Positions 5,170-59,167 of a stretch of 64,000 nt of DNA are shown one piece after another. The position numbers and the translations under genes are program-made. Origin of the DNA: Sphingobacteriales bacterium (GTDB lineage Bacteria; Bacteroidota; Bacteroidia; Chitinophagales; UBA2359); NCBI GenBank assembly GCA_016718845.1, contig JADKCK010000037.1, positions 1 to 64,000 of the forward strand, read 5' to 3'. The notes beneath the pieces are model-generated. The model saw only the letters and a program-made list of their open reading frames with translations. It made no database searches and was not told where the DNA came from. The first letter of the stretch is position 1. Each line of letters starts with the position of its first letter.

Positions 5170-5184
5170 CATTCGCATCTTTTA

Positions 5185-5259
5185 CCCACCCCTGCCCCTC
5201 CAAAGAGGGGAATTTATTTACCATTTACTTTTACCCACCCCTGCCCCTCCCAAGAGGGA
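5185..5259 (+). repeat. two copies of a GC-rich hairpin mini-element (CCCCTGCCCCTCC-AAAG-AGGGG) in a direct repeat of about 50 bp
   Basis: cccacccctgcccctccaaagaggggaatttatttacca occurs twice (5185-5210 and 5234-5258). Members of the same family occur at 19406, 37866-38010, 42353 and 49143. Confidence 0.5.
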
Positions 5260-5293
5260 ATTTATTTACAATTTACCATTTACAATTAAAAAA

Positions 5294-11704: not shown

Positions 11705-11760
11705 CGTAAATAAATTTAAAGTTATTAAAAATGGATTATTATCTATCAAAAATAAAGTAT

Positions 11761-12230
11761 TGAGGGCAACATGAGGTATATTGAGGGCAACATGAGGTAT
11801 ATTGAGGGCAACATGAGGTATATTGAGGGCAACATAAGGTATATTGAGGGCAACATGAGGTATATTGAGGGCAACATAAGGTATATTGAGGGCAACATGA
11901 GGTATATTGAGGGCAACATGAGGTATATTGAGGGCAACATGAGGTATATTGAGGGCAACATGAGGTATATTGAGGGCAACATGAGGTATATTGAGGGCAA
12001 TATATGGGTTGTTGGAGGCAATATATGGGTTGTTGGAGGCAATATATGGGTTGTTGGAGGCAATATATGGGTTGTTGGAGGCAATATATGGGTTGTTGGA
12101 GGCAATATATGGGTTGTTGGAGGCAATATATGGGTTGTTGGAGGCAATATATGGGTTGTTGGAGGCAATACTTGGGTTTAAAGAGGCAATACTTGGGTTT
12201 AAAGAGGCAATGCTCACTCCGCTAGGAGCA
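11761..12230. repeat. 21-bp tandem satellite in three sub-arrays (atgaggtatattgagggcaac x12; atatgggttgttggaggcaat x9; acttgggtttaaagaggcaat x2)
   Basis: Perfect to near-perfect 21-mer tandem copies lie immediately upstream of the 10880..11704 gene. All six frames give spurious repetitive ORFs. Confidence 0.85.
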
Positions 12231-12715
12231 AAATATGGGTAGCAAAGCGTAATATGGGAAACATTTGAACATTAAACACCTTATAGACGTATTTTATTGT
12301 GCAATGGTTGCTTTTGTGGGTAAAAAATGTTTTGGAGTGCGACTATGTTGTTGTTTGCGAGGTACAAACAATTAAAAGGGAGCATTAAATACGCTCTTTT
12401 GAAGATTTGTTAAAAGAAAGATTTTAACATAACTACCTAATAATTAAGCGTTTATGTGTTACAGCAAAATAAATTTAATCATAAATGTACCCAAACACAC
12501 TAAGTTTGCAAAAGTTTTAGTATTTTTGTGCTGAACTGATAGTGGAATTTTAACTCCATTACAAATACACAAAAGCTTTAAAAGGCAGTGTAATTGTAAC
12601 TTTTTATAAACCAGAAGTGCTTGTAACACTTCGCAACAAACCGCTTTTATGAAAGCAAAAATTTTATCCCTTAAACATATTACCCCCCCCCCATATATGT
12701 AGGTTATGGGTAATT

Positions 12716-22639: not shown

Positions 22640-23232
22640 CATAGGTACATAGAAAAACATAGGAACATAGATGCGTATCAGCTATGTCTCTATGAAAACC
22701 TATGCTTCCTATGTGTCAAAAAAACGGCTGTTTTCTTGTGTAAAGTAAGAATCACCACATAGGTACATAGAAAAACATAGGAACATAGATGCTTATCAGC
22801 TATGTCTCTATGAAAACCTATGCTTCCTATGTGTCAAAAAAAAGCGTGTTCTTGTGCAAATAAAAACACCCCAGGAGCATAGATGCGTATCAGCTATGTC
22901 TCATGAAAACCATGCTTCCTATGTGTCAAAAAACGGCTGTTTTCTTGTGTAAAGTAAGAATCACCACATAGGTACATAGAAAAATATAGCCACCTATTAA
23001 CTATGCTCCTATGAGAACCTATGCTTCCTATGTGTCAAAAAAAATACCACATAGAATCATAGGAAAACATAGACTGCATAGATGAGCATTAACTATGATT
23101 CTATGAAAACCTATGCATCTATGTGTCAAAAAAAATACCACATGAGAACATAGCCACCTATTAACTATGATTCTATGAAAACCTATGCTTCCTATGTGTC
23201 AAAAAAAAACGACTGTGTTCTCTGTATCTCCG
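22640..23232. repeat. modular CATAG/CTATG iteron-like tandem repeat array (array 1), bounded by a TGTGTTCTCTGTATCTCCGTTGTAAGC terminal motif
   Basis: There are 5-6 copies of the core ctatgNNtctatgaaaacctatgcttcctatgtgtcaaaaaaa. They are separated by recurring segments of variable length (ccacataggtacatagaaaaacataggaacatagatgcgtatcag...). Confidence 0.8.
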
Positions 23233-23415: not shown

Positions 23416-25182
23416 ATGCTTTTACATAACCGTTACGAATACGACCCACGTATAAACTGGCTTGCCGATGGTAGCTCCTCAAAGGTGTACAAAGCCACCG
23501 ATACGCACAATCAACAAGCAGTGGTACTTAAGTTTTACCACACCTTGGGCAATCTTACGCCCGCCCAGTTTAAAGACAATATGGCTCGCACCATGGCTTT
23601 GCATCACCCAAATTTAGTGCAACTGCACGATTATTTCGAGATAGAAAACATTAACCCCTTTGGGCAACTCGATTATATACGCATTGGCGTTTGGGAGTTT
23701 GTAGCCCATACACCAAATACAACCGACACCGAAAGTATCCTTCGTCAGTCGCTCGATGCTTTACAATATCTACAACAAAACAATACCACACACGGTTCTA
23801 TCACCCCCGAAAACATTTTTACCACCGCCAGCGGGCAAGTAAAATTAAACAATGCAGGGGCTTTTGTCCAAGATATTGATACAACCGCCACCGATTTGCG
23901 CCAATTAGGCGAAGCACTACATTACTCCTTATCGGGTGGACAAGCACTTAGCTTTGACGATACCAACGCCCTTAAGTTAGCACTGCCCGACGACACCCGC
24001 GAAGTGTACAGCATCATCATACAAAAAACAGCCCACGACGATGCCAATATTGGCGATATCACCCATTTGTTGGATACCTACGACCGAGACAAACGCTTTG
24101 ATAAGGTATTGCCACTAACCGAAGCACAGTTCGAAAGCCGCTACGAGCTGCTCGATATGCTCGACAGCAACGACGAACATAGCACCTATCAGGCAAACGA
24201 CAACTTATTGGCTACTGCCGTTACATTGGCTATTTATCATGCACATCCATCTGCCGAGTACTACAACAAATTAAACAAAGCAACCTTAGCCCATTTGTTT
24301 AAAGTACAATTTGGCGAAAAGTTATCGCTTGTAGGTGTGATGCCAACCGCCGAAGAAACCACAAACCCCGTAGCTATCGCCGAACCTGCTATGGGCGATA
24401 CCGCTATTATTGCCGCCGCCGCTACTGTTGCTGCTGTTGAAACACTAACAGCTACAGACAGTAACGAAACCGCAGACAGCGAAAATGCCTTGCCAACAGA
24501 CGATATGCCAACTGCCGCAACAAGCACCGAAACAACCACTACCACCGTTACTACCACTACAACCGACGATGAAGATGCGGGCGAGGATACAGATAGTAGT
24601 TTAGATGAAGAAAACCTACAAGAACCAGACGGTGACGATGACGACGAAACATCGAACAACGAAGATGAAAATGAGTGGGACGACGAAGACGAAGATGAAT
24701 TAGTCGACAACGAGGACAACGATTTTATAGCAGCAGCCGACGAAGGAGATTCGGACGATGAAGACGAAGAAGATTCGGACGATGAAGACGAAGATGATTC
24801 GGACGATGAAGACGAAGATGATTCGGACGATGAAGACGAAGGAGATTCGGACGATGAAGACGAAGGAGATTCGGACGATGAAGACGAAGATGATTCGGAT
24901 GATGAAGACGAAGATGATTCGGACGATGAAGACGAAGATGATTCGGACGATGAAGACGAAGATGATTCGGATGATGAAGACGAAGATGATTCGGATGATG
25001 AAGACGAAGATGATTCGGATGATGAAGACGAAGATGATTCGGATGATGAAGACGAACCACTTAATTTGGTAGTGCCAGACGATGACGACGACGAAGAGTT
25101 AAAACCAACCGAAATTATAAACAGCGAAGCCATGCAGCAAGTACTAAAAGACATGGAACGATTGTTAAAAAACGATGACTAA
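23416..25182 (+). CDS. protein-kinase-like (probably pseudokinase) domain protein with a Thr-rich linker and a long polyacidic (DSDDEDED)n C-terminal tail
   Basis: The N-terminus has DGSSSKVYKATD....AVVLKF (G-loop/VAIK-like) and HPNLVQLHDYFE. The catalytic HRD and DFG motifs are replaced (HGSITPENIF, NAG). The C-terminal 150 aa are almost only D/E/S. Confidence 0.5.
   Translation: MLLHNRYEYDPRINWLADGSSSKVYKATDTHNQQAVVLKFYHTLGNLTPAQFKDNMARTMALHHPNLVQLHDYFEIENINPFGQLDYIRIGVWEFVAHTPNTTDTESILRQSLDALQYLQQNNTTHGSITPENIFTTASGQVKLNNAGAFVQDIDTTATDLRQLGEALHYSLSGGQALSFDDTNALKLALPDDTREVYSIIIQKTAHDDANIGDITHLLDTYDRDKRFDKVLPLTEAQFESRYELLDMLDSNDEHSTYQANDNLLATAVTLAIYHAHPSAEYYNKLNKATLAHLFKVQFGEKLSLVGVMPTAEETTNPVAIAEPAMGDTAIIAAAATVAAVETLTATDSNETADSENALPTDDMPTAATSTETTTTTVTTTTTDDEDAGEDTDSSLDEENLQEPDGDDDDETSNNEDENEWDDEDEDELVDNEDNDFIAAADEGDSDDEDEEDSDDEDEDDSDDEDEDDSDDEDEGDSDDEDEGDSDDEDEDDSDDEDEDDSDDEDEDDSDDEDEDDSDDEDEDDSDDEDEDDSDDEDEDDSDDEDEPLNLVVPDDDDDEELKPTEIINSEAMQQVLKDMERLLKNDD
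24748..25057 (+). repeat. intragenic 24-bp tandem repeat (gattcggacgatgaagacgaagat x~13) encoding DSDDEDED units
   Basis: The period-24 repeat is perfect with only synonymous or conservative variation. It also produces artefactual antisense poly-Ser ORFs. Confidence 0.85.
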
Positions 25183-27779: not shown

Positions 27780-28490
27780 AAGAAAAACAACAAGAGACAC
27801 AGAGGGCACAGAGAAAAAAAACTCCGTGTTCTCTGTGTCTCCGTTGTAAATAAAATCACCATATAGACAGATAACCGCCCATTAACTATGCCTCTATGAA
27901 AACCTATGTTTCTATGTGTCAAAAAAAATACCACATAGAATTATAGGAAAGCATAGACCGCATAGATGTGTTAAACTATGCCTCTATGAAAACCTATGTT
28001 TCTATGTGTCAAAAAAAATACTACATAGATGGGCATACTGTTTCTATGAAAAACACATAGATCAGTAAAAAAGCCACATAGGTAGGCATTAACTATGTTT
28101 CTATGAAAACCTATGCATCTATGTGTCAAAAAAAATACCACATAGGTAGGCATTAACTATGTTTCTATGAAAACCTATGCATCTATGTGTCAAAAAAAAT
28201 ACCACATAGGTAGGCATTAACTATGTTTCTATGAAAACCTATGCATCTATGTGTCAAAAAAAATACCACATAGGTAGGCATTAACTATGTTTCTATGAAA
28301 ACCTATGCTACTATGTGTCAAAAAAAAACACATAGAATCATAGGAAAGCATAGACCGCATAGATGTGTATTAAACTATGCCTCTATGAAAACCTATGTAT
28401 CTATGTGTCAAAAAAAATACCACATAGGTAGGCATTAACTATGTTTCTATGAAAACCTATGCTACTATGTGTCAAAAAAGAGATGTGTCT
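27780..28490. repeat. modular CATAG/CTATG iteron-like tandem repeat array (array 2), flanked by a GAGACACAGAG...CTCTGTGTCTCCGTTGTAAATAAAA motif at both ends
   Basis: There are 8 copies of a ~50-bp core, aactatgYYtctatgaaaacctatgNNtctatgtgtcaaaaaaaataccacatag. Intervening segments are 9, 35-37 or 62 bp long and themselves recur (gtaggcatt x5; aatcataggaaagcatagaccgcatagatgtgt x2). Confidence 0.8.
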
Positions 28491-31760: not shown

Positions 31761-32636
31761 ATGCAAAAGCTTTTATTAATCACCTTATTTTCGCTGGGCT
31801 TGCTTAGTTTTACCACCGATAAACCTGCCTATAGACTGTTTGATGCCAAAGGTCAAGCTAAAAATTATGCCGACTTGTTGAAAACCGCCGCCAAAGCCGA
31901 CATCGTGTTTTTTGGCGAACTGCACAACAACCCTATTGCCCATTGGCTACAATTAGAACTAACCCAAGATTTGTTCACCCAAAAACAAAATCAATTGGTA
32001 CTGGGTGCCGAAATGTTCGAAGCCGACAACCAATTAGTACTTACCGAGTACCTAAACGGTTTGATTAACGAAAAAAACTTTGAAACCGAGTGCCGCCTTT
32101 GGGATAACTACAAAACCGATTACAAACCACTTATTAACTTTGCTAAACAAAATCAACTTAATTTTGTAGCTACCAACATTCCGCGCCGTTATGCCTCTAT
32201 TGTGTCCAAGCGCGGTTTAGATGCACTAAACACCCTACCCACCGAAGCCCGCAACTACATAGCCCCACTACCCATAAAAGTAGACCTATCGCTGCCGGGC
32301 TATGCCGCTATGCTCGATATGGGCAGTAATCACGACGAAAACGACACCATAGGCAACGACTTTTTTCCTAAGGCACAAGCCATAAAAGATGCAACAATGG
32401 CTCATTTTATCCTAAAAAATTGGGAGAAAAACAAACTCTTTTTGCACTTTAACGGAGCTTATCACTCTAACAACTACGAGGGTATTGTGTGGTATCTAAA
32501 ACAAGCCAATCCTAAACTTAACATTGTTACCATCAGCAGTACCGAGCAAAACAACATAGACACCCTAGAAGAAGAAAACAAAAATGTAGCAGATTTTATA
32601 ATTGCTATACCAACAACCATGACCAAAACCTATTAA
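31761..32636 (+). CDS. ChaN-like / Tiki-TraB superfamily lipoprotein (haem-binding uptake family)
   Basis: A signal peptide is followed by ADIVFFGELHNNPIAHWLQ (GEXH motif) and NGAYHS (second His motif), typical of PF04187-like proteins. Confidence 0.5.
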   Translation: MQKLLLITLFSLGLLSFTTDKPAYRLFDAKGQAKNYADLLKTAAKADIVFFGELHNNPIAHWLQLELTQDLFTQKQNQLVLGAEMFEADNQLVLTEYLNGLINEKNFETECRLWDNYKTDYKPLINFAKQNQLNFVATNIPRRYASIVSKRGLDALNTLPTEARNYIAPLPIKVDLSLPGYAAMLDMGSNHDENDTIGNDFFPKAQAIKDATMAHFILKNWEKNKLFLHFNGAYHSNNYEGIVWYLKQANPKLNIVTISSTEQNNIDTLEEENKNVADFIIAIPTTMTKTY

Positions 32637-32668: not shown

Positions 32669-32760
32669 GTGGTATTTTTAGCCCCGTTAGGGGTGTTATA
32701 TGGGTAACAAAGATGTGGATAAACGTATTTTTAGCCCCTTTAGGGGTGTGATATGGTTAT
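32669..32760 (+). repeat. direct duplication of a ~45-bp unit (gtatttttagcccc[g]ttaggggtgt[t]atatgg) with a weak internal hairpin
   Basis: Two copies 45 bp apart lie in the intergenic region downstream of the ChaN-like gene. Confidence 0.4.
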
Positions 32761-32904: not shown

Positions 32905-33954
32905 ATGCTCCGTTCTATTTCTTTACTGTTTTTATTGTTTCAAACAAGCCTATCTTTTGCCCAATTACTACCACAACCCGACCATGTTGTGATACTAATT
33001 ATGGAAAACCACGACTACAGCCAAATTATTGGCGAGCCTAACTTGCCCTACCTCAACTCGTTGGTACCACAAGGGGCGTTGTTTACCAACTATTATGCCC
33101 TTACGCACCCAAGCCAACCCAATTACATACGCATGTTTTCGGGCGATAGCCAAGGCGTAATAGCCGATTTTGTGCCCTTGTTTGCGCCCTTTGATACGCC
33201 CAACTTAGGTGCCGCTTTATTGCAAAACGGGCGCACTTTCTTTGGTTTCTCCGAAGATTTACCCTCGGTAGGTTTCACAGGTGCCGAGTCGGGTAAATAT
33301 GTGCGCAAACATGCCCCTTGGGTTAACTGGATTGGCGGCGATGCCAATGCCATACCTGCCAACAAACACCGCCCATTCACCGATTTCCCAACCGATTTTA
33401 ACCAACTGCCCACTATTTCTTTCGTTATCCCTAACCTCGACAACGACCTACACGATAACCCCACCGACTATGCCACCTCCGACCTTTGGATACAAAACCA
33501 TTTAGATGCCTATATTCAGTGGGCAAAAACCAACAACAGTTTGTTTATCCTAACCTTTGACGAGGGCGAACTATTGGGCGACAACAAAATAGCTACAATA
33601 ATGGTGGGCGAGCCAGTTAAATTAGGCGAATACAATACCCATTACGACCACTACGACCTGCTCCGCACACTATTAGATATGTACAACCTACCAGCTTGTG
33701 GCGAAAGCAACAGCGCTACCCCCATAACAGGCTGCTGGAAAACCTGTAGCCTTATCCACCCCCAAATTACAGGCGATGCCGATGCCTGCCCAAGTAACAC
33801 AGCCACCTACAATGTGCAAGCAGTAGCAGGTACTACCTACAACTGGACAGTGAACGGCGGAACAATAATATCGGGGCAAGGAACCGCCCAAATACAAGTG
33901 CAATGGAACAACGATACAGCAGGTACTGTTGATGTAGTGCAGAGTGTACCTTAA
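32905..33954 (+). CDS. secreted phosphoesterase-family protein (PLC/AcpA-like) with a C-terminal beta-domain
   Basis: A signal peptide is followed by HVVILIMENHDY and a conserved NYIRMFSGDSQG-type block. The Cys-containing C-terminal ~90 aa do not form a full T9SS CTD. Confidence 0.45.
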   Translation: MLRSISLLFLLFQTSLSFAQLLPQPDHVVILIMENHDYSQIIGEPNLPYLNSLVPQGALFTNYYALTHPSQPNYIRMFSGDSQGVIADFVPLFAPFDTPNLGAALLQNGRTFFGFSEDLPSVGFTGAESGKYVRKHAPWVNWIGGDANAIPANKHRPFTDFPTDFNQLPTISFVIPNLDNDLHDNPTDYATSDLWIQNHLDAYIQWAKTNNSLFILTFDEGELLGDNKIATIMVGEPVKLGEYNTHYDHYDLLRTLLDMYNLPACGESNSATPITGCWKTCSLIHPQITGDADACPSNTATYNVQAVAGTTYNWTVNGGTIISGQGTAQIQVQWNNDTAGTVDVVQSVP

Positions 33955-34191
33955 TTTTCATAAACCCAAACACCCAATCCCCCCGCTTGACCAACCACCA
34001 AGCGGGGGATTTGCATAATCAACAATCATTATTAAACCAAAAGTAGCACAATTACAACAAAAAGTTGTACCTTTGCACGATTTTTTGACACTATTAGTGG
34101 GTAGGTACTGGTGTTTAACACATCAACCAAACCCAATCTCTTCAACTTCTTACAAAATATAACAGCCCGAAGCTAACATAGCTCCCTAAGC

Positions 34192-36116: not shown

Positions 36117-37139
36117 TTACAACTTACAATTTACGCGCAGCCTACTAACCCCACCATCGGGGAAAATGTTAAGCCTGATGTGCGAAAAAACACCCCTGTT
36201 AACCAACTGCTCTATGTATTCATGCTCGGCATCGGCACTTAATTTTTGTTTTGGTAAGATGATTTGCCACTCAACCGCATCTTGCAAAACAGCTTCATCG
36301 TTGTCGGCTAAACAACCCTCAATGCTGCAAGTATCGGGGTAATTGCCTTTAAAATGGCAAGTATCTACCACAATACGCTGTATGTTGTCGGTGGGTTTTG
36401 CTAATTTTAAAATCACCCAATCGCAATTGTTTGGCGTGCGGTTGCGTTTCGTCTCCCAGCCATCGCCCATGTTAGCCCCTCTATTAGGCATAATTAGGTT
36501 GCCCATGGCACTAAAAAACATGTCGTTGCAAGCCAAAGCTGTACCACCATTTATGGCTGCTGCCAAATCTACTTCGGTGTTAGGTGCTACTTGGCTCCAA
36601 TCTTTAAACACCTTGCCGTATACGCGCAAACGTGCTACACCACCGTCGGGGTAAATGTGCAAACGGATATGGGTAAACAGTTGATTGTTGTGGCATTCGT
36701 AAAAGTTTTGGCTACCTGCATCAAGGTGCGATTTGGGCAGTATCTCTTGCCAATCCAATGCGTCCCAATCGCTTACAGCATTGGGGTTGCTTAGGTTAAT
36801 ACCCTCGATAGAGGCATGTGGCGGATGATTGCCCAAAAAGAAGTTGGTATCAATATCAAAACCAGCAATGCTGCCCAATGTAGCCAATTGCACCACACAC
36901 CAATCGTGACCAGCGGTGCGTTTGCGCCTACTCTCCCAACCATCCATCCATTTGCCTCGGTCGGTGTATTTATCGGTAATAAAAATACCACGTGTAGGCT
37001 TGATAAGGTTTTCTTTCTCGGCAAAAAAGTCGTCGGTGGCATACAACACTTTACCACCTAATTGCTCCGATGCCAAATCGGTTAATTGTGTGAAAGCGGG
37101 GGCTACCTTTATAATTTCTGTTACTTTCGTAAAAGCCAT
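36117..37139 (-). CDS. allantoicase (two tandem allantoicase repeats)
   Basis: Each half carries the allantoicase repeat signature: DLASEQLGGKVLYATDDFFAEKENL...GWESRRKR...DWCVVQL and GTALACNDMFFSAMGNLI...GWETKRNR...DWVILKL. Confidence 0.8.
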   Translation of the reverse strand: MAFTKVTEIIKVAPAFTQLTDLASEQLGGKVLYATDDFFAEKENLIKPTRGIFITDKYTDRGKWMDGWESRRKRTAGHDWCVVQLATLGSIAGFDIDTNFFLGNHPPHASIEGINLSNPNAVSDWDALDWQEILPKSHLDAGSQNFYECHNNQLFTHIRLHIYPDGGVARLRVYGKVFKDWSQVAPNTEVDLAAAINGGTALACNDMFFSAMGNLIMPNRGANMGDGWETKRNRTPNNCDWVILKLAKPTDNIQRIVVDTCHFKGNYPDTCSIEGCLADNDEAVLQDAVEWQIILPKQKLSADAEHEYIEQLVNRGVFSHIRLNIFPDGGVSRLRVNCKL

Positions 37140-38554
37140 TGTCCTGCGTTTTTGTTAATTATTTGATGATGATTGAAAACAAGTACCCCATTTACATACG
37201 TTTGTTGCACTACCCCAAACAAGCGTTGCCCAATATATGGGCTGATGGGATAGCGATGCAAAACATCTTGTGGGGTAGGCACAAAACTTGCTTCGGGCTT
37301 CCAAATGGTAAAATCGGCATCATAACCTACCTTTATGCTGCCTTTTTTTGTGTCTACACCTAAAAATTGTGCAGGCTTTTGGGTGATAAGTGGTATAAAC
37401 TGGGCTAAACTTACGTACTCTTTTAGGCTTGTGTAGCTGGCGGGTAGCAAAAACTGCAAACCGGCTATACCGCCCCATGCCTTTTGTAGGTTGCCGCTTT
37501 CTATCTCTTTGATAGCAGGCGGCGCCGGCGAATGGTCGGACGACACAAAATCCATTAAACCACTACCAAAGGCTTGTTTTATTAAGTTGTTGTTGTGTGC
37601 CTCGCGGATAGGTGGAGCACATTTATATAGCGTATTGCCATCGGGTATGGTTTCGGCACTAAACAGTAGGTAATGCGGGCAGGTTTCTACGGTAAGCGGC
37701 AAACCCTCTTGTTTAGCTTGGGCAATATAGGGCAATGCCTCTGCCGAAGATAAATGTACAATGTGCGTTTTGCAAGCATGCTTCCTACATAGGTCTATCA
37801 TCAACAAAACAGCATCGTTCTCCCATTGTTTAGGGCGGCTTGCCAAATATTGGGCATAACTCAAATCCCCCCCTTGCCCCCCCTTTGGAAAAGGGGGGGA
37901 GGCATTCGCCTCATCATCAGAGGCATTTGCCTCTGTTGATGAATGCTCCCCCCCCAAAGGGGGGGCATTTTCTTGACAATACTCCCCCTTTGGGGGGGCA
38001 AGGGGGGGATTTTCGCAGTGTGCCAACAGTGGTACATTATACGGAGCCAAGATAGCCATAGCCGCGTCCAACTCCTTACGCCCTACATTCGGAAACTCAT
38101 CAATACCCGAATGTACTAAAAACGCCTTGATACCCAATACCCCTGCATCTACCAATGCCGTTAAATGTTGTAGGTTATCGGGCACAAGTCCGCCATAAAA
38201 CCCACAATTAACGTGCATTTTACCGTTCGATGCGGCTAACTTTTGCTCAAAAGCTGCCACCGTAGTAGTTACGGGGCTTGAGTTAAGTGGCATATCTATT
38301 ACCGTAGTGATGCCGCCTGCTGCTGCTGCTTGGGTGGCGGTATCAAAACCTTCCCAGTCGGTGCGTCCGGGTTCGTTGATGTGTGCATGTACATCAATAC
38401 AACCGGGCATAAGCACATCATCACCCACATCTACTACATTAGGGTTGTTTAATTTGCCTTGGTAGATGTGCGTAATGATACCATTATCAAAAGAAATAGT
38501 TGCAGGCTGAAGCTGATTGTCGAGCCAACAACGAGTGCTATATAAGTGGGGCAT
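37121..38554 (-). CDS. allantoinase-like cyclic amidohydrolase (dihydroorotase/hydantoinase superfamily), with an in-frame ~45-aa GC-element insertion
   Basis: The metal-binding motif is CIDVHAHINEPGRTDWEGF. The context (adjacent allantoicase and xanthine dehydrogenase) supports allantoinase. The insertion encodes ...EYCQENAPPLGGEHSSTEANASDDEANASPPFPKGGQGGDLSYAQ.... Confidence 0.7.
   Translation of the reverse strand: MPHLYSTRCWLDNQLQPATISFDNGIITHIYQGKLNNPNVVDVGDDVLMPGCIDVHAHINEPGRTDWEGFDTATQAAAAGGITTVIDMPLNSSPVTTTVAAFEQKLAASNGKMHVNCGFYGGLVPDNLQHLTALVDAGVLGIKAFLVHSGIDEFPNVGRKELDAAMAILAPYNVPLLAHCENPPLAPPKGEYCQENAPPLGGEHSSTEANASDDEANASPPFPKGGQGGDLSYAQYLASRPKQWENDAVLLMIDLCRKHACKTHIVHLSSAEALPYIAQAKQEGLPLTVETCPHYLLFSAETIPDGNTLYKCAPPIREAHNNNLIKQAFGSGLMDFVSSDHSPAPPAIKEIESGNLQKAWGGIAGLQFLLPASYTSLKEYVSLAQFIPLITQKPAQFLGVDTKKGSIKVGYDADFTIWKPEASFVPTPQDVLHRYPISPYIGQRLFGVVQQTYVNGVLVFNHHQIINKNAGQWLLRK
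37866..38010. repeat. cluster of 3-4 GC-rich hairpin mini-elements (C5-7 TTG C5-7 ...G5-7) embedded in-frame in the amidohydrolase gene
   Basis: cccccccttgccccccctttggaaaaggggggg, ctccccccccaaagggggggc and ctccccctttgggggggcaaggggggg are present. Local GC far exceeds the flanking sequence. The same family is seen at 5185, 19406, 42353 and 49143. Confidence 0.5.
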
Positions 38555-38559
38555 GTAAA

Positions 38560-38830
38560 TGGTAAATTGTAAGTTGTAAGGGGTAAATTGTAAGTTGTGA
38601 AAGGGAGGCAGTCGTTGAGCGAAGTCGAAACACGGTCGTTGAGCGAAGTCGAAACGATGATGTTACGATATGTAGAGACATAGCGCTGCTACGTCTATAA
38701 CACGATGATTACACAGATCATAAATCATCATAAAAATCATGACCAATCAGCGTTCTATTTTGCGATGTGGTGGTGTAGATATGGTGATATGTAGATACGT
38801 AGCTCTGCTACGTCTATAACGCGATAATTA
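38560..38830. repeat. composite intergenic repeat region (ggtaaattgtaagttgt x2; gtcgttgagcgaagtcgaaac x2; gtagaNacRtagcNctgctacgtctataacRcgat x2)
   Basis: Direct duplications are visible. These motifs also occur at 10634-10692, and the taaattgtaagttgtaa motif recurs at 35990-36010 and, inverted, at 36100-36125. Confidence 0.5.
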
Positions 38831-42093: not shown

Positions 42094-43698
42094 TTATTTA
42101 ACAATAGATACTGTACCCGATGCTAAACGGTCGGTACCCGATAATACAGTATAGTAGTACAAGCCTGTTGGTATGGTACGTGTATCCCACAACAACTCGC
42201 CGCTTAGGTTAGTAAATGGTAGTTGTGTAATTTCTTTGCCTGTTGGGTCGGTGATTACCAATAAAATGGCTTCGGTTTTTGAAGGTACGCTGTACGCAAA
42301 CGTAACATAATCGCGGGCAGGGTTGGGGTACACCTTCATATAAACACCTATCACCCCCTCCTTCGGAGGGGGCAGGGGGGAGGCTATACCCACCGGAAAA
42401 CACGTTTCTTGCTCTACGCAGCCGTACTTGTCGGTATGCACCACCCATGCCCAATAACCTGCCGTAGGCGAAGGTGTCCAGTTATCAATAACCTCTCCTA
42501 CCATTACCAAACTGCTGTCGGGTAACATCACCATGTCTTGGAAATAATGTTCGACATGATCGCCAACCTTACTACCCGAATGGAAGTAATCGGATAACCG
42601 ATAATAAAACTGCGTACCTAAACTATCTCCGTTTGCAGAAAATTTAGTAATGACGGCTGCATACCTTAAACTATCTGGGTTTATCCAACGGGCTATTCTA
42701 CCACACACCAAAATACTACCATCTGCTAACTCCACAGACCGCGAAAAATAGGCAGCTCCGATATATGGGTTAGTATACTCCCATGCCAACTCGTGGTTGT
42801 TGTTTAGCTTGCCAATGTATTGGCGCTCGTTAAACGCAATATAGCTGTTGCTGTTGATTATAAATTTTTCTTGACCGCTAAATACAATGCCACCATCTTT
42901 GGTTAAGGTAAGTTTTGGAGCCGTCACAACACGCCCCAAAGCAGGTGACAGGTATTGCCACACAATAGCACCCGTTTCATCTGCCTCAAATATCCAAGTG
43001 CGACCTCTGCAACTGTCATCAGGGGGGTAATAAGCTGGGCATGGGCCGTAAATGGTGGAGCTAACTATAAAATGATTGTTGGGTAATAGTTGTAAATCGG
43101 AGGCTGTTTTGTAGATGCAGAAAGGATCGGGGGAGGGAAAATTAAATTGATCTACTTTATTACCCAAAGCATCAATTTTGATAACCGATACTTTATTACC
43201 ATCACCAACGCCACTAATACCCAAAATTGCTAAAACATAATAGTTGTCTTCGCTGTCCTGTTGTATCTGAGTAACCGTGATAGCATTGCTTATTTCTTGT
43301 CCATAATGACGGTATAATAATGTATCTCCATTAACATCAAAAATTGTTAAAAAAAAACCAGAATCCATTTGATTCCTACCCACTATCGCCAAATTTCCAT
43401 TATTAGTAGCTATTAATGCATCGTTCCACAGTTCTAAATTTCTTAACGTATCTGTGTACACTTTTAATACCTCTATATTCCCTGTAGAGTTTAAGCGTGT
43501 AAAAAAACCTGCATTATGTGGAGTAGGAGTAGGCACAACAGTAACTCCTGTTATATACCAGGCAGTATCGGTGGTTACAATACTCCGAAAAATAGTAGCC
43601 GTATTTGTATCTGTGCGATACAATTCATTAAAATAAGGCTGGGCGGTAAGTTGTAAGCATAAGGCAAAAGTACCAACTATTGCAAATAATGTTTTCAT
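42094..43698 (-). CDS. T9SS-secreted beta-propeller-like repeat protein
   Basis: After a signal peptide the protein has repeated ..GN..IVG......G.F.......GD.LW...YG modules. An ASPLPPPKEG linker is encoded by the GC mini-element at 42353-42386. The CTD is ...GLYYYTVLSGTDRLASGTVSIVK. Confidence 0.6.
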   Translation of the reverse strand: MKTLFAIVGTFALCLQLTAQPYFNELYRTDTNTATIFRSIVTTDTAWYITGVTVVPTPTPHNAGFFTRLNSTGNIEVLKVYTDTLRNLELWNDALIATNNGNLAIVGRNQMDSGFFLTIFDVNGDTLLYRHYGQEISNAITVTQIQQDSEDNYYVLAILGISGVGDGNKVSVIKIDALGNKVDQFNFPSPDPFCIYKTASDLQLLPNNHFIVSSTIYGPCPAYYPPDDSCRGRTWIFEADETGAIVWQYLSPALGRVVTAPKLTLTKDGGIVFSGQEKFIINSNSYIAFNERQYIGKLNNNHELAWEYTNPYIGAAYFSRSVELADGSILVCGRIARWINPDSLRYAAVITKFSANGDSLGTQFYYRLSDYFHSGSKVGDHVEHYFQDMVMLPDSSLVMVGEVIDNWTPSPTAGYWAWVVHTDKYGCVEQETCFPVGIASPLPPPKEGVIGVYMKVYPNPARDYVTFAYSVPSKTEAILLVITDPTGKEITQLPFTNLSGELLWDTRTIPTGLYYYTVLSGTDRLASGTVSIVK

Positions 43699-43757: not shown

Positions 43758-46700
43758 CTATTTAACAATAGATACTGTACCCGATGCTAAACGGTCGGTA
43801 CCCGATAATACAGTATAGTAGTACAAGCCTGTTGGTATGGTACGTGTATCCCACAACAACTCGCCGCTTAGGTTAGTAAATGATAGTTGTGTAATTTCTT
43901 TGCCTGTTGGGTCGGTAATTACCAATAAAATGGCTTCGGTTTTTGAAGGCACGCTGTACGCAAACGTAACATAATCACGGGCAGGGTTGGGGTAAACAGT
44001 AACTGTAGTAAGCAGTTTATTTATGTCTGCTTGTGGGTTAGTACTTATTTGTTTGCCGCTACCCGCAGCGGGTGTTAAATTGGGCAGGGTGGGCAAGCCA
44101 CAATTGCTGCCGTTTACAAAGCACAATATGTTTTGGGCTTGTATGGTAGCCGCATCGGTTGGTGTGCCATTAGCAAGGGTTTGCAGTTGGCTTTTTTCGG
44201 TGTTGGTAAGCTGTAGCCAATTTCGCCCGCTCTCTATCACTTGTCGTTTTAGGGCGTATAGCTGCATATAGGCAGTATGCGGGTTGGGGTTGCGCAATAC
44301 ATACAAATAGCGGTTAGGCATGTCGGACAATAGGGTGCTGCCTGCTGTGCCATTGTTGTGGGTAAGGTAGCTTTCGGCAAGGACATAGTCGGCTGCCGAT
44401 GTGTGTTGGCGTTGTAGCCATTGGTGTAGGTCGGTTAGGTTGGGTATGCTGTCGTTTAGTATGTTAGACACCATCAACTGCCCATTGTGCAGCATTAGGC
44501 TGCGGTAGTTGAGCAGGTTGCGGTACAGCGTTTTTTTCAACGAGCCGGATTCTTGGGTGCACAACAACAAATCGAGCAGGTTTTGGGGTAGTGGGTTGGG
44601 TATGTCGTGGGCTAAAAAATCTAAAAAGGCTTTGTCTTTGCAAGCATCGGCGTTTAGCAATAGTATTTCTATGAGCATGGCATCGGGTAGCGTGCCTGTA
44701 AGGGGCAGCGCGGCGCAATACCTCTTGCGACAGGTTGGGCGATTTGGCTACTAATTGGTTGCGCAGTGTCCAGGCATCGTTGCTCCATACCAAATCTATG
44801 TTATCGAGCAGGGCATTGGTATTGCCATTGTCTATTAGGGCATTGTATAGGTATAGGGTGTTGCCATAGTCGGTTTCGGCTTGCGTAAAACTGTTGGCTA
44901 ATACCTGGCGGGCGGGCTGTGCCAAACCTGATATTTGTTGGCTTTGGTCGGGGCAGGTGTTTGGGTTACTTATATCTCCTTGTACCTGCGTAAACCACTC
45001 TGTAGTAAAATCCAATGCCTGTGTTTGTAGTAGGGCATTATCGTAATATTGCGTAACGGGCAAGCCACTGTGTAGGTAGTAATCGCTTTCGGAGGTGCCG
45101 TTGCGCGAGTACTTATTTTGGGCAGATTGTGTGCCGCCCAAAATGCCATTCTGAAACAAACGTATGCCATTGCCGCCTGCTATGTACATGTCGTACAATC
45201 CTTGGGTGTGGGTGTTGCACTCGTAGTGCAAGCCCATAGCATCAGGGTTTAATGGATCATTTCTATTATCACCCAATGCTAAATTGGCGTAATCTAATTT
45301 AGTAAAGGTGTTGTTATAAATTAGGTTGTTGTTGGGTCCGGTGTTGTTTACCCAAATGCCAATTCTGTTTTGTTGGCTACATTGTTGCCTATAAAGGTGT
45401 TTTTTTGTATCTTGTAGCCAGTACCTGTATATACTATTAAGCCAAAGCCTAGGTTGCCGCGTGCGGGGTTGTGTAGGGTAAAGGTGTTGTTTACAATTTT
45501 GGCAGTGTTTACGTTTTGGGTAATTATGCCTACTGTATTGCCCGTAAAGTTTGACCTTTGTACGCTAATGGTGTGGTTGCCAGCGGCGCGGGTAGCTTTA
45601 ATGCCACACGATAGTTTTTGGAAGGTACAAGCATCGGCAGCGCTGTTACTGCCTACTTTGTATCCGGCATCAATAGAGTATATGCCATAGAAGTTTTGTT
45701 GTGCATCGGGTAGGTTGGTGTTGTTGTTGATGAAGTTACATTTTTTAAACTGTACGCCGTCTACGTCCCACATAGTAACGCGGTGTATGGGGTCGGTGTT
45801 GCGGTAGTTGTTGTCTATGGTAAAGGTGCAGTTGTAAAAGTTGCTTAGGTTTGGGTGCGAGAATCCGCTGTAGTAGTTGTTGTATTGCATAAACTCTAGG
45901 TCGCGGTGGTTGTTGGTAAAAGTTGCGCCGTTGGCAATAATAATACCGCCTGCTGTGTTGGCATCGCTGCCGTTCCAGGTGCTTATGGCATCGCGGGCGT
46001 GTTCTATTTTGGCACCAGCATTAATAGTTACTTTGCCCTGTAAGCAATCGGGATAAGAACCTGTTTGCCCTAATGTTTTGTTACCCAGTACTCTAATCCC
46101 GCCCCACATATCGCCGCAGGCATTGGTTATTTTGCCGTTTATTATTAGTTCGGCACTTGGCTCTACTATAATAAACGCATTGGCTGCCATATTAAGTGTG
46201 CCATTAATGGTTAAGCTTTTATGTGCTTGTACCCTAATGGTGTTGGCTGCATTTATTACCCTGCCTTGTTGGTAAATGGTGTTTTCGGTAATCAGGTAAT
46301 CTTGTGCAAAGTCGGCATTGTCTAAGTTCGATTGCCAAATACCTCGCCCAAATGTGCCAATGTGTAGTAAGCGTTTGCAATAATCTATCTCCAAATCAGT
46401 AACAATACAAACCGGTAAATTGTGGTTAAAACAGCCCCATGCATTTGTAGCAGGGTTGTAGCGGTATACGCCAACATCGGTGCCTGCATATAATATGCCA
46501 TTAGAGCCATTTACGTAAGCTAAGGCATTGACCGGAAAAGGCGTTAAACCATTGTTAAGCGACATGTCGGTAAAAGTTAGTCCACCATTGATTGATTCTT
46601 CTACTCGTCCCTGAGTTTGTCCGGTGTCATCTGTCGGAAACCCGCCTTTGGCTATACAAATATGGTTGGGGTTACGCGGGTCTATGGCTATGGCATTCAC

Positions 46701-48950
46701 ACGCCCATGAATATACGATACCACCGACCAAGCACCTGTGCCTCCATTTTCGCTTTTGAACAAGGCAGTGCCCTCTTTCCAATCTTCTACGTTAGGGTTG
46801 GGGTCATTATCGTATTTAATGTCGCCTGCCAAATCAACAATATTGCCATTAGAGGGTGCTGCGCTTAACGCTCGTGCATTAAAGTATATTATAGGGTAGG
46901 TTGTTCCGTAGACGTTGACAAAATAATCACCCAATGCTAAATTTTTAGAAAAAGTAGGGTTAGGTAATGTGCCTGTACCGTCTATTATCTGAAAAAACTC
47001 GTCTTTAGCAAAATACAGGGTACTACTTTGTTCGGGTTTGGCGGTCATTAAAAAATCATCAAATACCGAACCTATGTTATTAGTATACACGGTTGTTAGG
47101 CTACTAATGTTATCGTTAACCGATTTAAATAAGTTGGCGTTACCTCTTCCATAAATAGTAGTTGGGGTATTGGCATCCATAATTGTGTGTCCTCCATCGC
47201 CGTAGGCATACAAAGACCATTGCCCATTAGTTTGCCTTAGGTAGGTATGGTTGTCTTGTGCCCCACCTGCAATAATGCCTGGTCTGGCAGACGAATTAGT
47301 AATGTCGTAAAATTGGGTAAGAATTAGGGTAGATCCATTAAGGTTTGCCCAACTAATGCCGCCATCAGTACTTTTACTTACTCCACCATCTGTGCCTATC
47401 AATATTACATCATTTACGCCACCAGTGTTAGGTGTATAAATTTGGAAACCGCGCAAATCCGCATGTTGATCGTCTGAGTCGGGGCAGGTTGTTGCAGATG
47501 ATGAAAGAGCTGGGAGAAAAGAACTTCCCAAATCGATAGATTTTTGAAGGCATAATTTACCGCTATAAATAACCGAAAAGTCGGCATCGCTTATTTCAAA
47601 ACCTGCACCAAAAAAGCCTACATCTGTGTTAACGGTAGCATTAAGTACTTGCCATTTTGCATCGGGTGTGGCTAAGTCTAACGACATATAGGGTTTGTTA
47701 TGTAGGGTGTTACCTATAATTGCTCCTTGTGCATCAGTAATTTCTTCGTAGTCGTTATACATAGCAAATATTTTTCCGGGTGCAAAAGCACTTACATCAA
47801 CATGAAAAGCTTCGGTTTTAAAATAATAACCCGCCGGGTTTTGCATATTAGATGCGTTAGGGCTAATAACTTGCCAAGTAGCTCCGGCATCAATACTTTT
47901 GTATATATTAGCCCCACTGTAAGGCCAGCCATGTTTTTTAGTAGACAAAACAAGGGTATTAGCTAAACCAGGAATAATTTCTACACCACTAAAAGTTTCG
48001 TCCCATTGTAAAGTTAATGTACTTGTTACGTTTTGCCAGTTTATTCCCCCATCCGTTGTTTTCCAGAGTTTACTTTGCCCTAATGCATAAATGGTGTTGT
48101 AGGTAGCATCTGTTTCATCGAACATTAATTTTTCGATTGGTTGTTGTTCTACGGCTGTATAGTCTAAGCTGGTAGCCGCCCATGTGTTGCCCCCATCTGT
48201 CGATTTAAATACACCAACGCCATAATTTTCAAAAAAACCTACCGAATTACCTGTTCCAATATACATAGTAGTAGGTGGCTCTGTTCCATTTGGTTTGGCA
48301 ATAATTGCAATTACGCCTAAACCTGGTAGGCGCAGTTGGTCGGTTAGGTTTTGCCAGTGTACGCCATTATCGGTAGTTTTCCACAAACCAGCTGTATTAG
48401 AGCCTGCAAAAATAGTATTTACTGGCGATTGCCCAGGTGGGGCATATACACAACGCACATAACCCGAGTTTTGGCTAGCAGTTATTACGGGTCCTAATTG
48501 TTGCCAGTTGCTGTTGCCCGAGTTACAAATAGTATTGGGGTTAGTAAGGACAGATAGGTATTGTGCGTAGGCATTAAAATTGCCTGTTGCACCTACTCTG
48601 TTACTCCAAAAGTTTTCCCAACGTGTAAATCGATGGGCAAAGTTTTGGTCTTCGGGGTGTTGGCTAATGTACTGTCTGGCTTGTCGAGCAATTTCGTAAA
48701 ACGAGGTCGTTTTTTTATTCATCGCCGTATACAAAGCAACTACTTGCGGATTTGTTACTTCGGTTGCTTCCTCCTCTTCGTAGCCCTGCCCCAAAACCAA
48801 TTGCCCGCTTCCTATCACGGCGCAACAGGTTAAAACAAGGCTATAAAGCCCACATATTACCCCCCCCCTAATATGTAATAGGTTGGGAAGTAAAGACAGT
48901 AAGGGGTTTAATACGCCCTTTCTCAACGCGGGAATTAAATTTCTGTTCAT
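43758..48950 (-). CDS. very large T9SS-secreted protein with BNR/sialidase-like repeats and right-handed beta-helix repeats; the frame is apparently broken twice (45277-45347 and ~44680-44700)
   Basis: BNR motifs are STDGGNTW, TTDGGINW, SIDAGATW and STDGGISW. A beta-helix region follows (NFTGNTVGIITQNVNTAKIVNNTFT...). ORFs 45348..48950, 44464..45276 and 43758..44678 are collinear, and the last one ends in a T9SS CTD. The start is uncertain. Confidence 0.45.
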
Positions 48951-49142
48951 CTTGTTAAAGATTTGTTTTTGAACGTGAAAAATTAGGGAATAATATTACA
49001 ATATGGTGATGTGAAGATGTATGAGCTTGTCACCATTTCATTCCTTCACCACTTCACCACTTTTACGAAGAGCAAAAATACTAAAACTTTTTTAAACTTG
49101 CTTAGTTTTGGTACACACACTAACACATTTATTTTTTAAAAT

Positions 49143-49290
49143 CCCCCCCTTGCCCCCCTTCGAGGGGGGGAATACATACATACATACACACCTTTTACGT
49201 GTCGGGACACAATCCTACTACCATTATATCCGTAGCAAGAGGGTTTAAACCCTCCGTTACGGATAAAATGGTACATCTTTACACTGCAAC
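49143..49290. repeat. GC-rich hairpin mini-element (cccccccttgccccccttcgaggggggg) followed by a long imperfect hairpin (ccattatatccgtagcaagaggg-tttaaa-ccctccgttacggataaaatgg)
   Basis: This is an intergenic copy of the family seen inside CDSs. A ~50-nt near-palindrome is adjacent. Confidence 0.5.
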
Positions 49291-49319: not shown

Positions 49320-49680
49320 AAAATGTCTTGTTGCGCGCTTGCAATGCTACGTTGCGCGCTTGCAATGCTACGTTGCGCGCTTGCAATGCTACGTTGCGCT
49401 TGCAATGCTACGTTGCGCGCTTGCAATGCTACGTTGCGCGCTTGCAATGCTACGTTGCGCGCTTGCAATGCTACGTTGCGCGCTTGCAATGCTACGTTGC
49501 GCGCTTGCAATGCTACGTTGCGCGCTTGCAATGCTACGTTGCGCGCTTGCAATGCTACGTTGCGCGATGCTCGTTGCGCTTGCAATGCTACGTTGCTTGC
49601 AATGCTACGTTGCTTGCAATGCCACGTTGCGCTTGCAATACCACGTTGCGCGCTTGCAATACCACGTTGCGCGTAAAAAA
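49320..49680. repeat. 21-bp tandem satellite (gcgcttgcaatgctacgttgc x~14, degenerating at the 3' end)
   Basis: The repeats are perfect 21-mers with an internal gcgcgc / ttgcaa dyad. All ORFs across it are repetitive artefacts. Confidence 0.85.
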
Positions 49681-52807: not shown

Positions 52808-52889
52808 TGTGGGAAATTTATGGTAAGATTAGATGTGCAGTTTAATAGTATCGAGTAAGGTTTCTTGAAGTTGGTACTTATATTGCTAC

Positions 52890-53085
52890 TACCATAGGCG
52901 ATACAAGTATTGCTACTACCAGAGCAAGTATCGCTATAACATAGGCGATACAAGTATTGCTACTACCAGAGCAAGTATCGCTATAACATAGGCGATACAA
53001 GTATTGCTACTACCAGAGCAAGTATCGTTTACACCATAGGCGATACAAGTATTGCTACTACCAGAGCAAGTATCGCTACTACCAG
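52890..53085. repeat. 47-bp tandem repeat x4 (ataggcgatacaagtattgctactaccagagcaagtatcgctataac) with internal dyad (gcgatac...gtatcgc)
   Basis: Four near-identical units lie in the intergenic region. Each can fold into a short hairpin. Confidence 0.7.
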
Positions 53086-53221
53086 ATGAAGCATCAAAGG
53101 TACGACATAAAAGCAAACGAGCTAAGTAGTTGGCTGAAAAAAGTAGCTACTATATCAAAACACGCTGCCCAATTGTAGTTTGGGCAGCGTGTTTGTGGTA
53201 TAGGTTGTGGGTAATGATAGG

Positions 53222-58534: not shown

Positions 58535-58665
58535 GGTGCAAAGATACAAGCCTTTAGGCAATTTTGCTTATATAAGGGCGTGTTTTTTTTGACGGCTTGA
58601 TAAATTTTGGCTGCCCGCTTTTGGCTGTCCGCTTCAGGCTTTTGGCTTGTCCGCTAAAAACGGCG

Positions 58666-59065
<400 letters not shown>

Positions 59066-59121
59066 GTCCCAAGCCTATGCCGAACAACTGTAGCTTGTAG
59101 CCAATAGCCGGGCACAACCGC

Positions 59122-59167
59122 AAAAAAACACCAACTGCTTTTTGAGGGCAGTTGGTGTTTTTTTTTG
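59122..59167. terminator. rho-independent terminator downstream of the 59225..62665 gene
   Basis: The hairpin is caaaaaaacaccaactgc-tttttgaggg-gcagttggtgttttttttt. Confidence 0.6.

Follow-up and report, generated by a model that had tools for sequence, protein, structure and literature searches.

Palindromic repeats in bacterial genes

Short palindromic repeats occur in many bacterial genomes, and some of them lie in frame inside genes. In two sources, the Rickettsia palindromic elements (RPEs) of Ogata et al. (2000) are described as in-frame palindromic repeats of about 100-150 nt, originally non-coding and located in unrelated metabolic genes, where the extra peptide is thought to be compatible with fold and function (PMC10969869, PMC3733652). 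Repetitive extragenic palindromic sequences (REPs) are G+C-rich hairpins of 20-40 nt, often arranged as inverted doublets, mostly intergenic and terminator-like (PMC3733652; PMC3116915); the REPIN concept treats the doublets as mobile units (PMC3116915). Intragenic REPs of the GTAG/CGTC type are documented as well, their dimers encoding 20-30 amino acids (aa) and their clusters 43-82 aa (PMC3733652). [quoted passage not shown] The subject of this work is a 150-nt palindromic block in the allantoinase gene (AllB) of a Sphingobacteriales bacterium, found in a 64-kb stretch of contig JADKCK010000037.1 (the window). The block has replaced a shorter native segment of the gene and is built of C-run/G-run hairpins that recur elsewhere. 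It is probably a non-autonomous REP/RPE-like palindromic repeat tolerated in a loop of a working allantoinase.

The block resembles RPEs in being palindromic, 150 nt long and in frame in a metabolic enzyme under purifying selection, the barrel of which is predicted by AlphaFold2 (AF2) to stay intact. Unlike the block, RPEs occur only in Rickettsia and have no C/G homopolymer build; the host of the block is a free-living member of Bacteroidota, the block has replaced its target, and its unit is common to several phyla. Judged from the Bacteroidota host and the homopolymeric composition, homology between the two is unlikely. In-frame palindromic insertions had been considered rare in the initial annotation of the locus; they are less rare than this implies, RPEs and GTAG/CGTC REPs being documented examples (PMC10969869, PMC3733652). 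With REPs and REPINs the block shares ends made of inverted half-units of 27-35 nt, and doublets are present in other genomes too. However, the ends of the listed units have no GTAG/CGTC tag (PMC3733652), and the stems are homopolymeric. Furthermore, two of the four loci in the window are intragenic, and no REP-associated tyrosine transposase (RAYT) is among the best 25 of its 55 Pfam families. Small size and 21-nt terminal inverted repeats are reminiscent of MITEs, whereas the block shows no target-site duplication, its target is deleted, and no transposase of a parent insertion sequence (IS) is among those 25 Pfam families. The earlier label "REP/MITE-like" is apt as regards the hairpin units, the inverted doublet and the terminal inverted repeat, but the block is not a textbook MITE.

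The G+C clusters of yeast mitochondria are GC-rich palindromic mini-elements that are optional between strains and occur in frame in var1. These clusters and the related hairpin inserts in genes of fungal mitochondria spread by gene conversion and duplicate AT-rich target sites; in the case of some fungal versions, ribosomes bypass the insert. The block is likewise a GC-rich palindrome in an AT-richer genome, optional between lineages and in frame in a gene. It differs from these organellar elements in that bypassing was rejected for it, the frame being open with neither a stop codon nor matched take-off and landing codons. Elhai et al. are said to have described in 2008 the small dispersed repeats (SDRs) of heterocyst-forming cyanobacteria, reportedly Nostocales-specific hairpin repeats of 21-27 nt that occur between tandem heptamers, within each other and inside genes. 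Compared by description, the present family is similar in comprising very small, nested hairpin repeats near heptamer tandem repeats, also inside genes, while the size of 21-27 nt and the restriction to Nostocales set SDRs apart. In-frame palindromic repeats are already known, and this hairpin family and its overwriting of the target are not described in the literature searched. Searches by DNA string, encoded peptide string or Rfam returned no description of a C7-TTG-C7 hairpin family. The shortest strings matched unrelated papers by chance; one literature match, to CRISPR repeats of cyanobacteria that have a C6-GAA-G5 hairpin, is not the present element.

The allantoinase gene and the block

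The product of the AllB reading frame scores 486.7 bits in the profile search against TIGR03178 (cut-off 357.85) and matches the solved allantoinases 3hm7 and 3e74 with an E value of about 1e-80 in the PDB search. The TIGR03178 match is full-length, and the metal ligands H56, H58, K143, H179, H264/H267 and D340 are located in invariant columns of the alignments. Judged by profile and alignment, the host gene is a bona fide allantoinase. The initial annotation had placed a hairpin block in frame within an allantoinase-like gene, which agrees with the score and with the open frame of 477 codons. Its coordinates were accurate to within a few bases, but the length is 150 nt and not about 145.

The block extends from 37863 to 38012 as limited by its inverted repeat and from 37862 to 38011 as codons 182-231. 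Its ends form a 21-nt inverted repeat with 100% complementarity (AAATC7TTGC7 / G7CAAG7ATTT). It holds three C-run/G-run hairpins, a fourth formed by its ends, and a central hairpin (Table 1). Taken together, the sequence makes up a long, imperfect palindrome, one arm of which exceeds the other by about 32 nt. Its folding energy is -61 kcal/mol (z -9.6) for DNA and -114 kcal/mol (z -10.3) for RNA. The G+C content is 58.7% as compared to 45.5% in the remainder of the gene. All seven glycine codons of the block are GGG, a codon that accounts for 9% of the glycine codons in the genes of the window. In its composition, the block looks foreign.

The block is open in three of its six frames, and the C7TTGC7 core in every one. 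The 50 aa encoded are NPPLAPPKGEYCQENAPPLGGEHSSTEANASDDEANASPPFPKGGQGGDL (NPPLAPPKGEYCQEN...KGGQGGDL). The peptide quoted earlier for the insert was correct but shifted, as the trailing SYAQ is native. Predicted peptides such as AHCENPPLAPPK and GGQGGDLSYAQYLASR would mark translation through the block. The AllB protein contains no Pfam domain besides amidohydrolase, and the 50-aa segment is of low complexity. No Rfam family reached the gathering threshold in the whole window; below this threshold, the block gave only generic hairpin or miRNA-like matches, and scanning of the window revealed no tRNA or tmRNA. An intron or intein was considered and rejected, as neither a ribozyme core (no Rfam family at threshold) nor an intein splicing domain is present.

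Replacement of the native segment

The protein search returned the same protein as P0001 (478 aa), followed by P0002 (445 aa, 88% identical), P0003 (442 aa, 74% identical) and hundreds of sequences of about 60% identity, mostly of 442-450 aa. All 40 aligned relatives are 438-462 aa long and have 15-18 aa at the site where the window protein has 50, so that none of them has a comparable segment, as the initial annotation had expected of an insertion. The variable segment is flanked by two invariant motifs, HCE (with the metal ligand H179) on one side and SY..YL.SRP on the other. In their alignments with the window protein, the PDB allantoinases are divided into two parts by the block.

In DNA, the insert-free alleles, namely L001-L004 and L106 (a syntenic locus of 21 kb), read CACTGCGAAA-TTTACGACACCGAACCGCCCAAATTGCTTAATAACTTAGCTCAACACCCGCAA-AGCTATGC, and the window allele reads CACTGCGAAA-ATCCCCCCC...GGGGGGGATTTG-AGTTATGC. 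Thus, 54 ancestral nt (IYDTEPPKLLNNLAQHPQ; 18 aa) were replaced by 150 nt (50 aa), the net gain being 96 nt, or 32 codons. The lost 18 aa make up a loop and a short helix that follow the metal-ligand motif HCE. The loop of about 45 added residues proposed earlier is indeed rich in Pro, Gly, Ala and Asp and disordered in the AF2 model, but the net addition is 32 aa, with 54 nt replaced. Synonymous divergence (dS) between the window and L001-L004 and L106 is 0.14, and an insert-free relative is about 95% identical in DNA. The short segment of 15-18 aa is kept in L001-L004, L106, the outgroup L007 and all orthologues of 60% identity. As the outgroup and these distant relatives possess the short segment, the state of the window is derived. 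The event is a replacement and not a clean insertion.

It is very improbable that a native low-complexity loop has grown in situ from Pro/Gly codons by slippage, the likeness to other sites being merely compositional. The length of the site does vary across the amidohydrolase superfamily, and a second unit in the window, described below, keeps 17 of 33 nt identical with a distant orthologue. However, the 21-nt inverted repeat has no mismatch, none of the 18 ancestral residues is left, and no intermediate alleles were found among the 45 members of the two protein clusters. Recurrence contradicts slippage too: a 20-mer occurs three times in the window, and an 18-mer together with the hairpin plan is present in about nine phyla. 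A search by eye in the alignment for ancestral residues hidden in the block (EYCQE vs IYDTE) was rejected, the similarity being at chance level in DNA.

The insert-free sister allele (L001-L004, L106) has in codons 187-189 nine extra nt, CCGCCCAAA (PPK), which are absent from the outgroup L007. They lie exactly where the window has CCCCCCCAAAGGGGG (the C7AAAG5 site), with 8 of 9 nt matching, and could be a microhomology seed or a scar.

Predicted structure and selection

The AF2 model of the window protein, run with 41 sequences, has an intact amidohydrolase barrel (pTM 0.82), in which residues 187-229 have a pLDDT below 50 and no secondary structure. In the model of the insert-free P0002 (pTM 0.89), a loop and a 9-residue helix (188-196) occupy the site of the block. 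This site is the excursion between strand beta-5 and helix alpha-5, on the catalytic face. Since the loop and helix of P0002 form the beta-5/alpha-5 excursion, the site would not be a core element of the barrel. The block is thus predicted to be a disordered Pro/Gly/Ala/Asp-rich surface loop that leaves the barrel intact.

The cluster of insert-bearing proteins comprises 21 sequences from NCBI, JGI, Logan and ENA assemblies, with P0141 alone on 15 contigs. One member, MBK9460760.1 from a Sphingobacteriales metagenome-assembled genome (MAG), has 477 aa and is identical to the window protein. Selection was examined in four clean, independently assembled alleles (window, L005, L006, L105) over 1284 flanking coding nt. 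Of the changes between them in these flanks, 33 are synonymous and 2 non-synonymous, a departure from the neutral expectation with P about 1e-19, and the pairwise ratio of non-synonymous to synonymous divergence (dN/dS) of insert-bearing alleles is 0-0.1. Purifying selection therefore went on after the block was acquired. The initial annotation had made the interest of the locus depend on a functional enzyme; the substitution pattern among insert-bearing alleles supports retained function, and catalytic activity was presumably kept. The hairpins would be translated, presumably with no benefit to the host.

In a fifth allele, L104, a 1-nt deletion at the end of the block splits the allantoinase. 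The allantoicase gene, which lies 3' of AllB with an overlap of 19 nt (Pfam domains of the neighbours show xanthine dehydrogenase 5'), is also frameshifted in this assembly. Allantoicase is split by single-base deletions both in L104 (JGI 3300056788) and in the insert-free L106 (JGI 3300056850). As the same JGI series splits allantoicase also in the insert-free lineage, the frameshifts of L104 and L106 are probably assembly errors, the alternative being real decay of the pathway. Phase variation was considered and rejected, since L104, the sole frameshifted allele, comes from this frameshift-prone series.

That the block itself is an assembly artefact, or the gene dead, can hardly be believed. 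The window does contain about 390 nt of homopolymer 'soup' at 58670-59060, it alone has G5 in a run that is G8 in all other assemblies, and its source is probably a long-read MAG. Against this, the same block is found in Logan, ENA, JGI and NCBI assemblies from different samples, and the frame is intact in at least four assemblies, including the four clean ones. The ratio of synonymous to non-synonymous changes rules out a long-dead gene.

Related hairpins in the window and in the sister lineage

The 15-mer CCCCCCTTGCCCCCC occurs exactly three times in the window, with 0.07 occurrences expected. Hairpins of the C5..G5 type number 9 as compared to 0.04 in shuffles. The 15-mer count is the cleaner test, because about half of the nine hairpins fall in the stretch 58670-59060, a probable artefact. 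This stretch consists almost entirely of long G, C and T homopolymer runs and overlaps a 189-aa reading frame (58554-59123, minus strand). It is probably not biological, being either an artefact of long-read assembly or a region of low quality that was collapsed.

The hairpin unit is present at four loci in the 64 kb, that is, the block and three others, two of the four being intragenic. The intergenic unit reported earlier at 49143-49172 is a true copy, sharing the 20-mer AAATCCCCCCCTTGCCCCCC (49140-49159) with the end of the block. The copies reported at 5185-5259 exist, but as a tandem pair of a degenerate terminator-like relative (ACCCACCCCTGCCCCTCCAAAGAGGGGAATTT). An in-frame copy at 42354-42383 had been missed. 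Recurrence of the motif, proposed from the window alone, thus extends to three exact 15-mers here and at least 80 loci in other genomes.

Table 1. Coordinates of the allantoinase gene, of the parts of its palindromic block and of related units in the window
Feature	Position	Strand	Remarks
Allantoinase (AllB) coding sequence carrying the block	37121-38554	-	Open over 477 aa; TIGR03178 and PDB matches
Composite palindromic element	37862-38012	-	150 nt, codons 182-231; DNA alignment with L001-L004, L007 and L106
Terminal inverted repeat arm, 3' side of gene	37863-37883		AAATCCCCCCCTTGCCCCCCC on + strand
Terminal inverted repeat arm, 5' side of gene	37992-38012		GGGGGGGCAAGGGGGGGATTT on + strand
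Half-unit ATC7-TTG-C7-TTTGGAAAA-G7	37865-37899	+	Pattern scan, hairpin list; gene strand encodes PPFPKGGQGGD
Hairpin C7-TTTGGAAAA-G7	37877-37899		Hairpin list
Half-unit ATC7-TTG-C7-AAA-G5, inverted relative to 37865-37899	37984-38010	-	Encodes NPPLAPPKG; G-run is G5 in the window, G8 in other assemblies
Hairpin C5-TTT-G7	37984-37998		Hairpin list
Inner hairpin C8-AAA-G7	37948-37965		Within the ~32 nt restricted to one of the two arms of the long palindrome
Central hairpin lacking homopolymer runs, TCATCATCAGAGGCA-TT-TGCCTCTGTTGATGA	37911-37942		Palindrome centre; 15-nt arms, 93% complementary
Intergenic half-unit AAAATC7-TTG-C6-TTCGA-G7-AAT	49138-49173	+	Exact repeats, pattern scan
Tandem pair of degenerate terminator-like relative, TTTTACCCACCCCTGCCCCTCC-AAAGA-GGGG-AATTTATTTAC, 49-nt period	5179-5276	+	3' of reading frame 4750-5169
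Unit inside a coding sequence, TCCCCCC-TG-CCCCCTCC-GAAG-GGAGGGGG	42354-42383	-	Encodes SPLPPPKEG; hairpin list, orthologue alignment

The unit at 42354-42383 is in frame in the reading frame 42094-43698, in the linker that precedes a type IX secretion system (T9SS) sorting domain. Distant orthologues have a linker of the same length made of ordinary DNA, with 17 of 33 nt identical between the window and a distant orthologue. The 65%-identical relative L089 has a different unit in the opposite orientation at the same linker site. The T9SS copy looks like a case of overwriting rather than addition, as far as the orthologue alignment goes.

Across about 18 kb that are syntenic between the window and L106, the indels of more than 20 nt comprise the allantoinase block, exclusive to the window, a 53-nt unit, exclusive to L106, and a few further small repeats. 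The 53-nt unit, at about 9930-9985 of L106 just upstream of the allantoinase start, is a degenerate-type hairpin (ACCCCTGCCCCTTGCCTAAGAGGGGAATTTACCC...) like that of window 5179-5276. It lies among AATTTAC/AACTTAC heptamer repeats, with AATTTACCC on both sides. As the block is present only in the window and the 53-nt unit only in L106, at least two gains or losses of family members took place within 700 bp since the split (dS 0.14).

Other hairpin-bearing repeats are found in the window. Repeats of 64-209 nt with CACATAGG/CCTATGTG palindromes are common to 22661-23044 and 27974-28335, and they match each other also in the comparison with L106. The small hairpin TATTTTTAGCCCC(G/T)TTAGGGGTGT occurs twice (32682-32693 and 32735-32746), 53 nt apart, between the reading frames 31761-32636 and 32905-33954.

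The hairpin family in other bacteria

A collection of species-representative genomes was scanned for the 18-mer ATCCCCCCCTTGCCCCCCC, and at least 80 loci were found, with about 17 matches expected by chance (an estimate under a uniform model). Among the matches listed, the 18-mer continues into a complementary hairpin in 50 of 83. The canonical simple hairpin is (A/G)AT-C7-TTG-C6-7-TTTnnnAAA-G6-7-(CAA/TT)-G6-7-AT(T/C). Other canonical forms are a half-unit minus one outer run and a branched doublet, the centre of which varies. At their start the units have (A/G)ATC, with A in front of AT in 45 units and G in 41, and at their end GAT(T/C). In many genomes the unit is present several times, with up to 8 half-units in 8 kb. 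No match was found in viral contigs.

The hosts among the matches listed presumably belong to about nine phyla, taking the record titles as a guide: Cyanobacteria, Nitrospirota, Desulfobacterota, Gamma-, Beta- and Alphaproteobacteria, Chloroflexota, Planctomycetota, Methylomirabilota, Patescibacteria and Bacteroidota. In-frame copies are present in the MurE of a Nostocaceae member (L023), in a TsaD-family protein of Nitrospirota (L010), in CHAT and PIN proteins and in the oxoprolinase of Microseira (L079). In the last case, a single Hydantoinase_B match spans ...PVF[SPPLKKGGQGGDL]LFYVASRGHHADIGG, and the peptide KGGQGGDL of this copy is also the C-terminal end of the window block. In the oxoprolinase homologues of L079 (P0169-P0288), the turn between THLPDITV.TPVF and LFYVASRGHHADIGG is mostly 5-7 residues long. 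In many cyanobacterial proteins, the same turn has 10-45 residues with repeat-like peptides PPLLRGE, PPLVRGE and NPKSKILSGMPD x2. The alignments mark this beta-turn as a hot spot for small in-frame repeats.

Origin of the block

In the most probable account, the block is a palindromic repeat in which two inverted half-units clamp further hairpins, an arrangement like that of a REPIN or an RPE. The repeat would have entered the allantoinase of one Bacteroidota lineage, probably that of the Sphingobacteriales MAG encoding MBK9460760.1, after the split from a sister population about 5% diverged in DNA. It would have overwritten 54 nt coding for the beta-5/alpha-5 excursion with 150 nt, leaving no target duplication. 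The copy would survive because its length is a multiple of three, poly-C/poly-G with TTG/CAA is stop-free in the frame used, and the site is variable and outside the barrel core. Once translated, the block would form a disordered Pro/Gly/Ala/Asp-rich loop, and the enzyme would keep working. Entry may have been transposition-like or may have occurred by copy-in during recombination or repair.

A number of observations weigh against the account of a discrete mobile repeat. No target-site duplication is present, the junctions CACTGCGAAA|ATCCCC and GGGGATTTG|AGTTATGC showing no direct repeat, and 54 target nt are missing relative to L001 and L106, unlike in a classical MITE or IS insertion. The missing target and the lack of duplication speak against classical MITE transposition and fit copy-in by conversion or template switching. 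The T9SS copy has the ancestral linker length and could partly be native Pro/Gly codons. No transposase or RAYT is among the best 25 of the 55 Pfam families of the window reading frames. No shared neighbour gene is located near the copies in the 80 loci, around which only ubiquitous families (ABC ATPase, NtrC-type regulators, Der, Mur ligases) and no candidate transposase were found. A second copy of the whole 150-nt composite was not found in the metagenome collection scanned, which does not include the organism. In that collection, the IUPAC pattern of the central hairpin gave no match and its plain 20-mer gave 13 loci, which were rejected as a single unrelated terminator-like locus. Finally, the block has changed slowly. 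Among the window, L005, L006 and L105, a single base of it is substituted (A to G in L105, which turns K into R) and a single run differs in length with the frame kept (G5 in the window, G8 in the others), as compared to about 17 substitutions expected at the flanking synonymous rate (Poisson P 5e-7; Fisher 7e-6). Its conservation exceeds that of the flanking synonymous sites about 15-fold, and this would be predicted neither for a passive passenger nor for a disordered loop.

Part of this evidence suits a rather unlikely alternative that departs from the preferred account in the mode of entry only. A break or a stalled fork in the loop-coding region would have been repaired by copying another family member, through gene conversion or microhomology-mediated template switching and with no dedicated transposase. 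Pro/Gly codons (CCN/GGN) would give the microhomology. Such a templated patch agrees with the target being replaced and not duplicated, and with the PPK codons of the sister allele, missing in the outgroup, that sit at CCCCCCCAAAGGGGG of the window. It is also consistent with the T9SS linker overwritten at equal length, where L089 has its own unit in the other orientation, with the absence of a transposase nearby (best 25 of 55 Pfam families; 80 loci) and with a block conserved far beyond neutral sites, as continuing conversion would give. On the other hand, the central 100 nt have no known donor copy, the microhomology of 8 of 9 nt is short, and the perfect 21-nt terminal repeats and clean boundaries resemble the ends of a discrete element.

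The slow change might be due either to selection on the hairpin itself or to uniformity maintained by conversion from other copies. The former leads to the improbable reading that the block is kept for a function, as an RNA or DNA structure (a pause, an RNase III site or an attenuator of the purine-catabolism operon) or as a slippage on/off switch. Besides the single change in the whole block, its synonymous sites alone show no changes as compared to 4.3 expected (P 0.014). As RNA, the hairpin has a very high stability (-114 kcal/mol), and the block contains homopolymer runs of 7-8 nt. All three indels seen in the gene fall in the block, namely the GGG run-length difference, a 3-nt deletion and the 1-nt deletion. 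However, the last of these belongs to L104, the only frameshifted allele, the assembly series of which contains other frameshifts. Moreover, the family is found in unrelated genes and in intergenic DNA, and sister lineages lack the block. A host function of the block is possible but not supported.

A broader proposal, tentative and somewhat doubtful, is that the repeats form a cross-phylum class of stop-free homopolymer-hairpin elements, (A/G)AT-C7-TTG-C6-7-loop-G6-7-CAA-G7-AT(T/C). Members of this class might spread by overwriting loop- or linker-coding stretches rather than by cut-and-paste, and might then be held constant by conversion or by selection on the hairpin.

Other repeats and gene content of the window

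The genome in the window is unusually repeat-rich. A tandem array with a 21-nt period (2.4 copies, 38554-38605) lies directly upstream of the allantoinase start. Intergenic arrays with the same period and unrelated units are located at 11758-12199, 49330-49673 and 52881-53116, the copy numbers in three arrays being about 11.6, 9.7 and 11.4, and an in-frame tandem array with a 24-nt period at 24739-25056. At 12674-12700 and 48848-48877, a 7-nt inverted repeat CATATTA/TAATATG surrounds a homopolymer of 9-10 nt, which is C10 at one site and G9 on the gene strand at the other. These sites are at the 5' end or just upstream of the large secreted-protein genes 12836-15295 (plus strand) and 45348-48950 (minus strand), and the motif is a candidate slippage-prone phase-variation promoter.

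Gene content differs from that of L106 in two places. A gene of the FGE-sulfatase family (301 aa; L106 14472-15506) is missing from the window at about 33954-33970. The interval between dCTP deaminase and xanthine dehydrogenase comprises about 11 kb of T9SS-cargo genes in the window as compared to about 2.5 kb in L106.

Significance

With the allantoinase block, a free-living bacterium contributes a clean and datable case to the so far short list of selfish palindromic DNA translated inside a working enzyme. Filled and empty alleles about 5% apart are available together with evidence of selection after the event. The case raises the questions of why the target was replaced instead of duplicated, why the block changes slowly and why a near-identical hairpin is present in about nine phyla, often in frame. 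In practical terms, such blocks inflate or split gene calls, PPLxKGGQGGD-like peptides turn up repeatedly among predicted proteins, and long-read assemblies are prone to errors in homopolymer runs. If the cross-phylum class is real, conserved enzymes of Bacteroidota, Cyanobacteria, Nitrospirota and other phyla would have in it a general source of new disordered loops, with allantoinase, MurE, oxoprolinase and a TsaB-like protein as examples.

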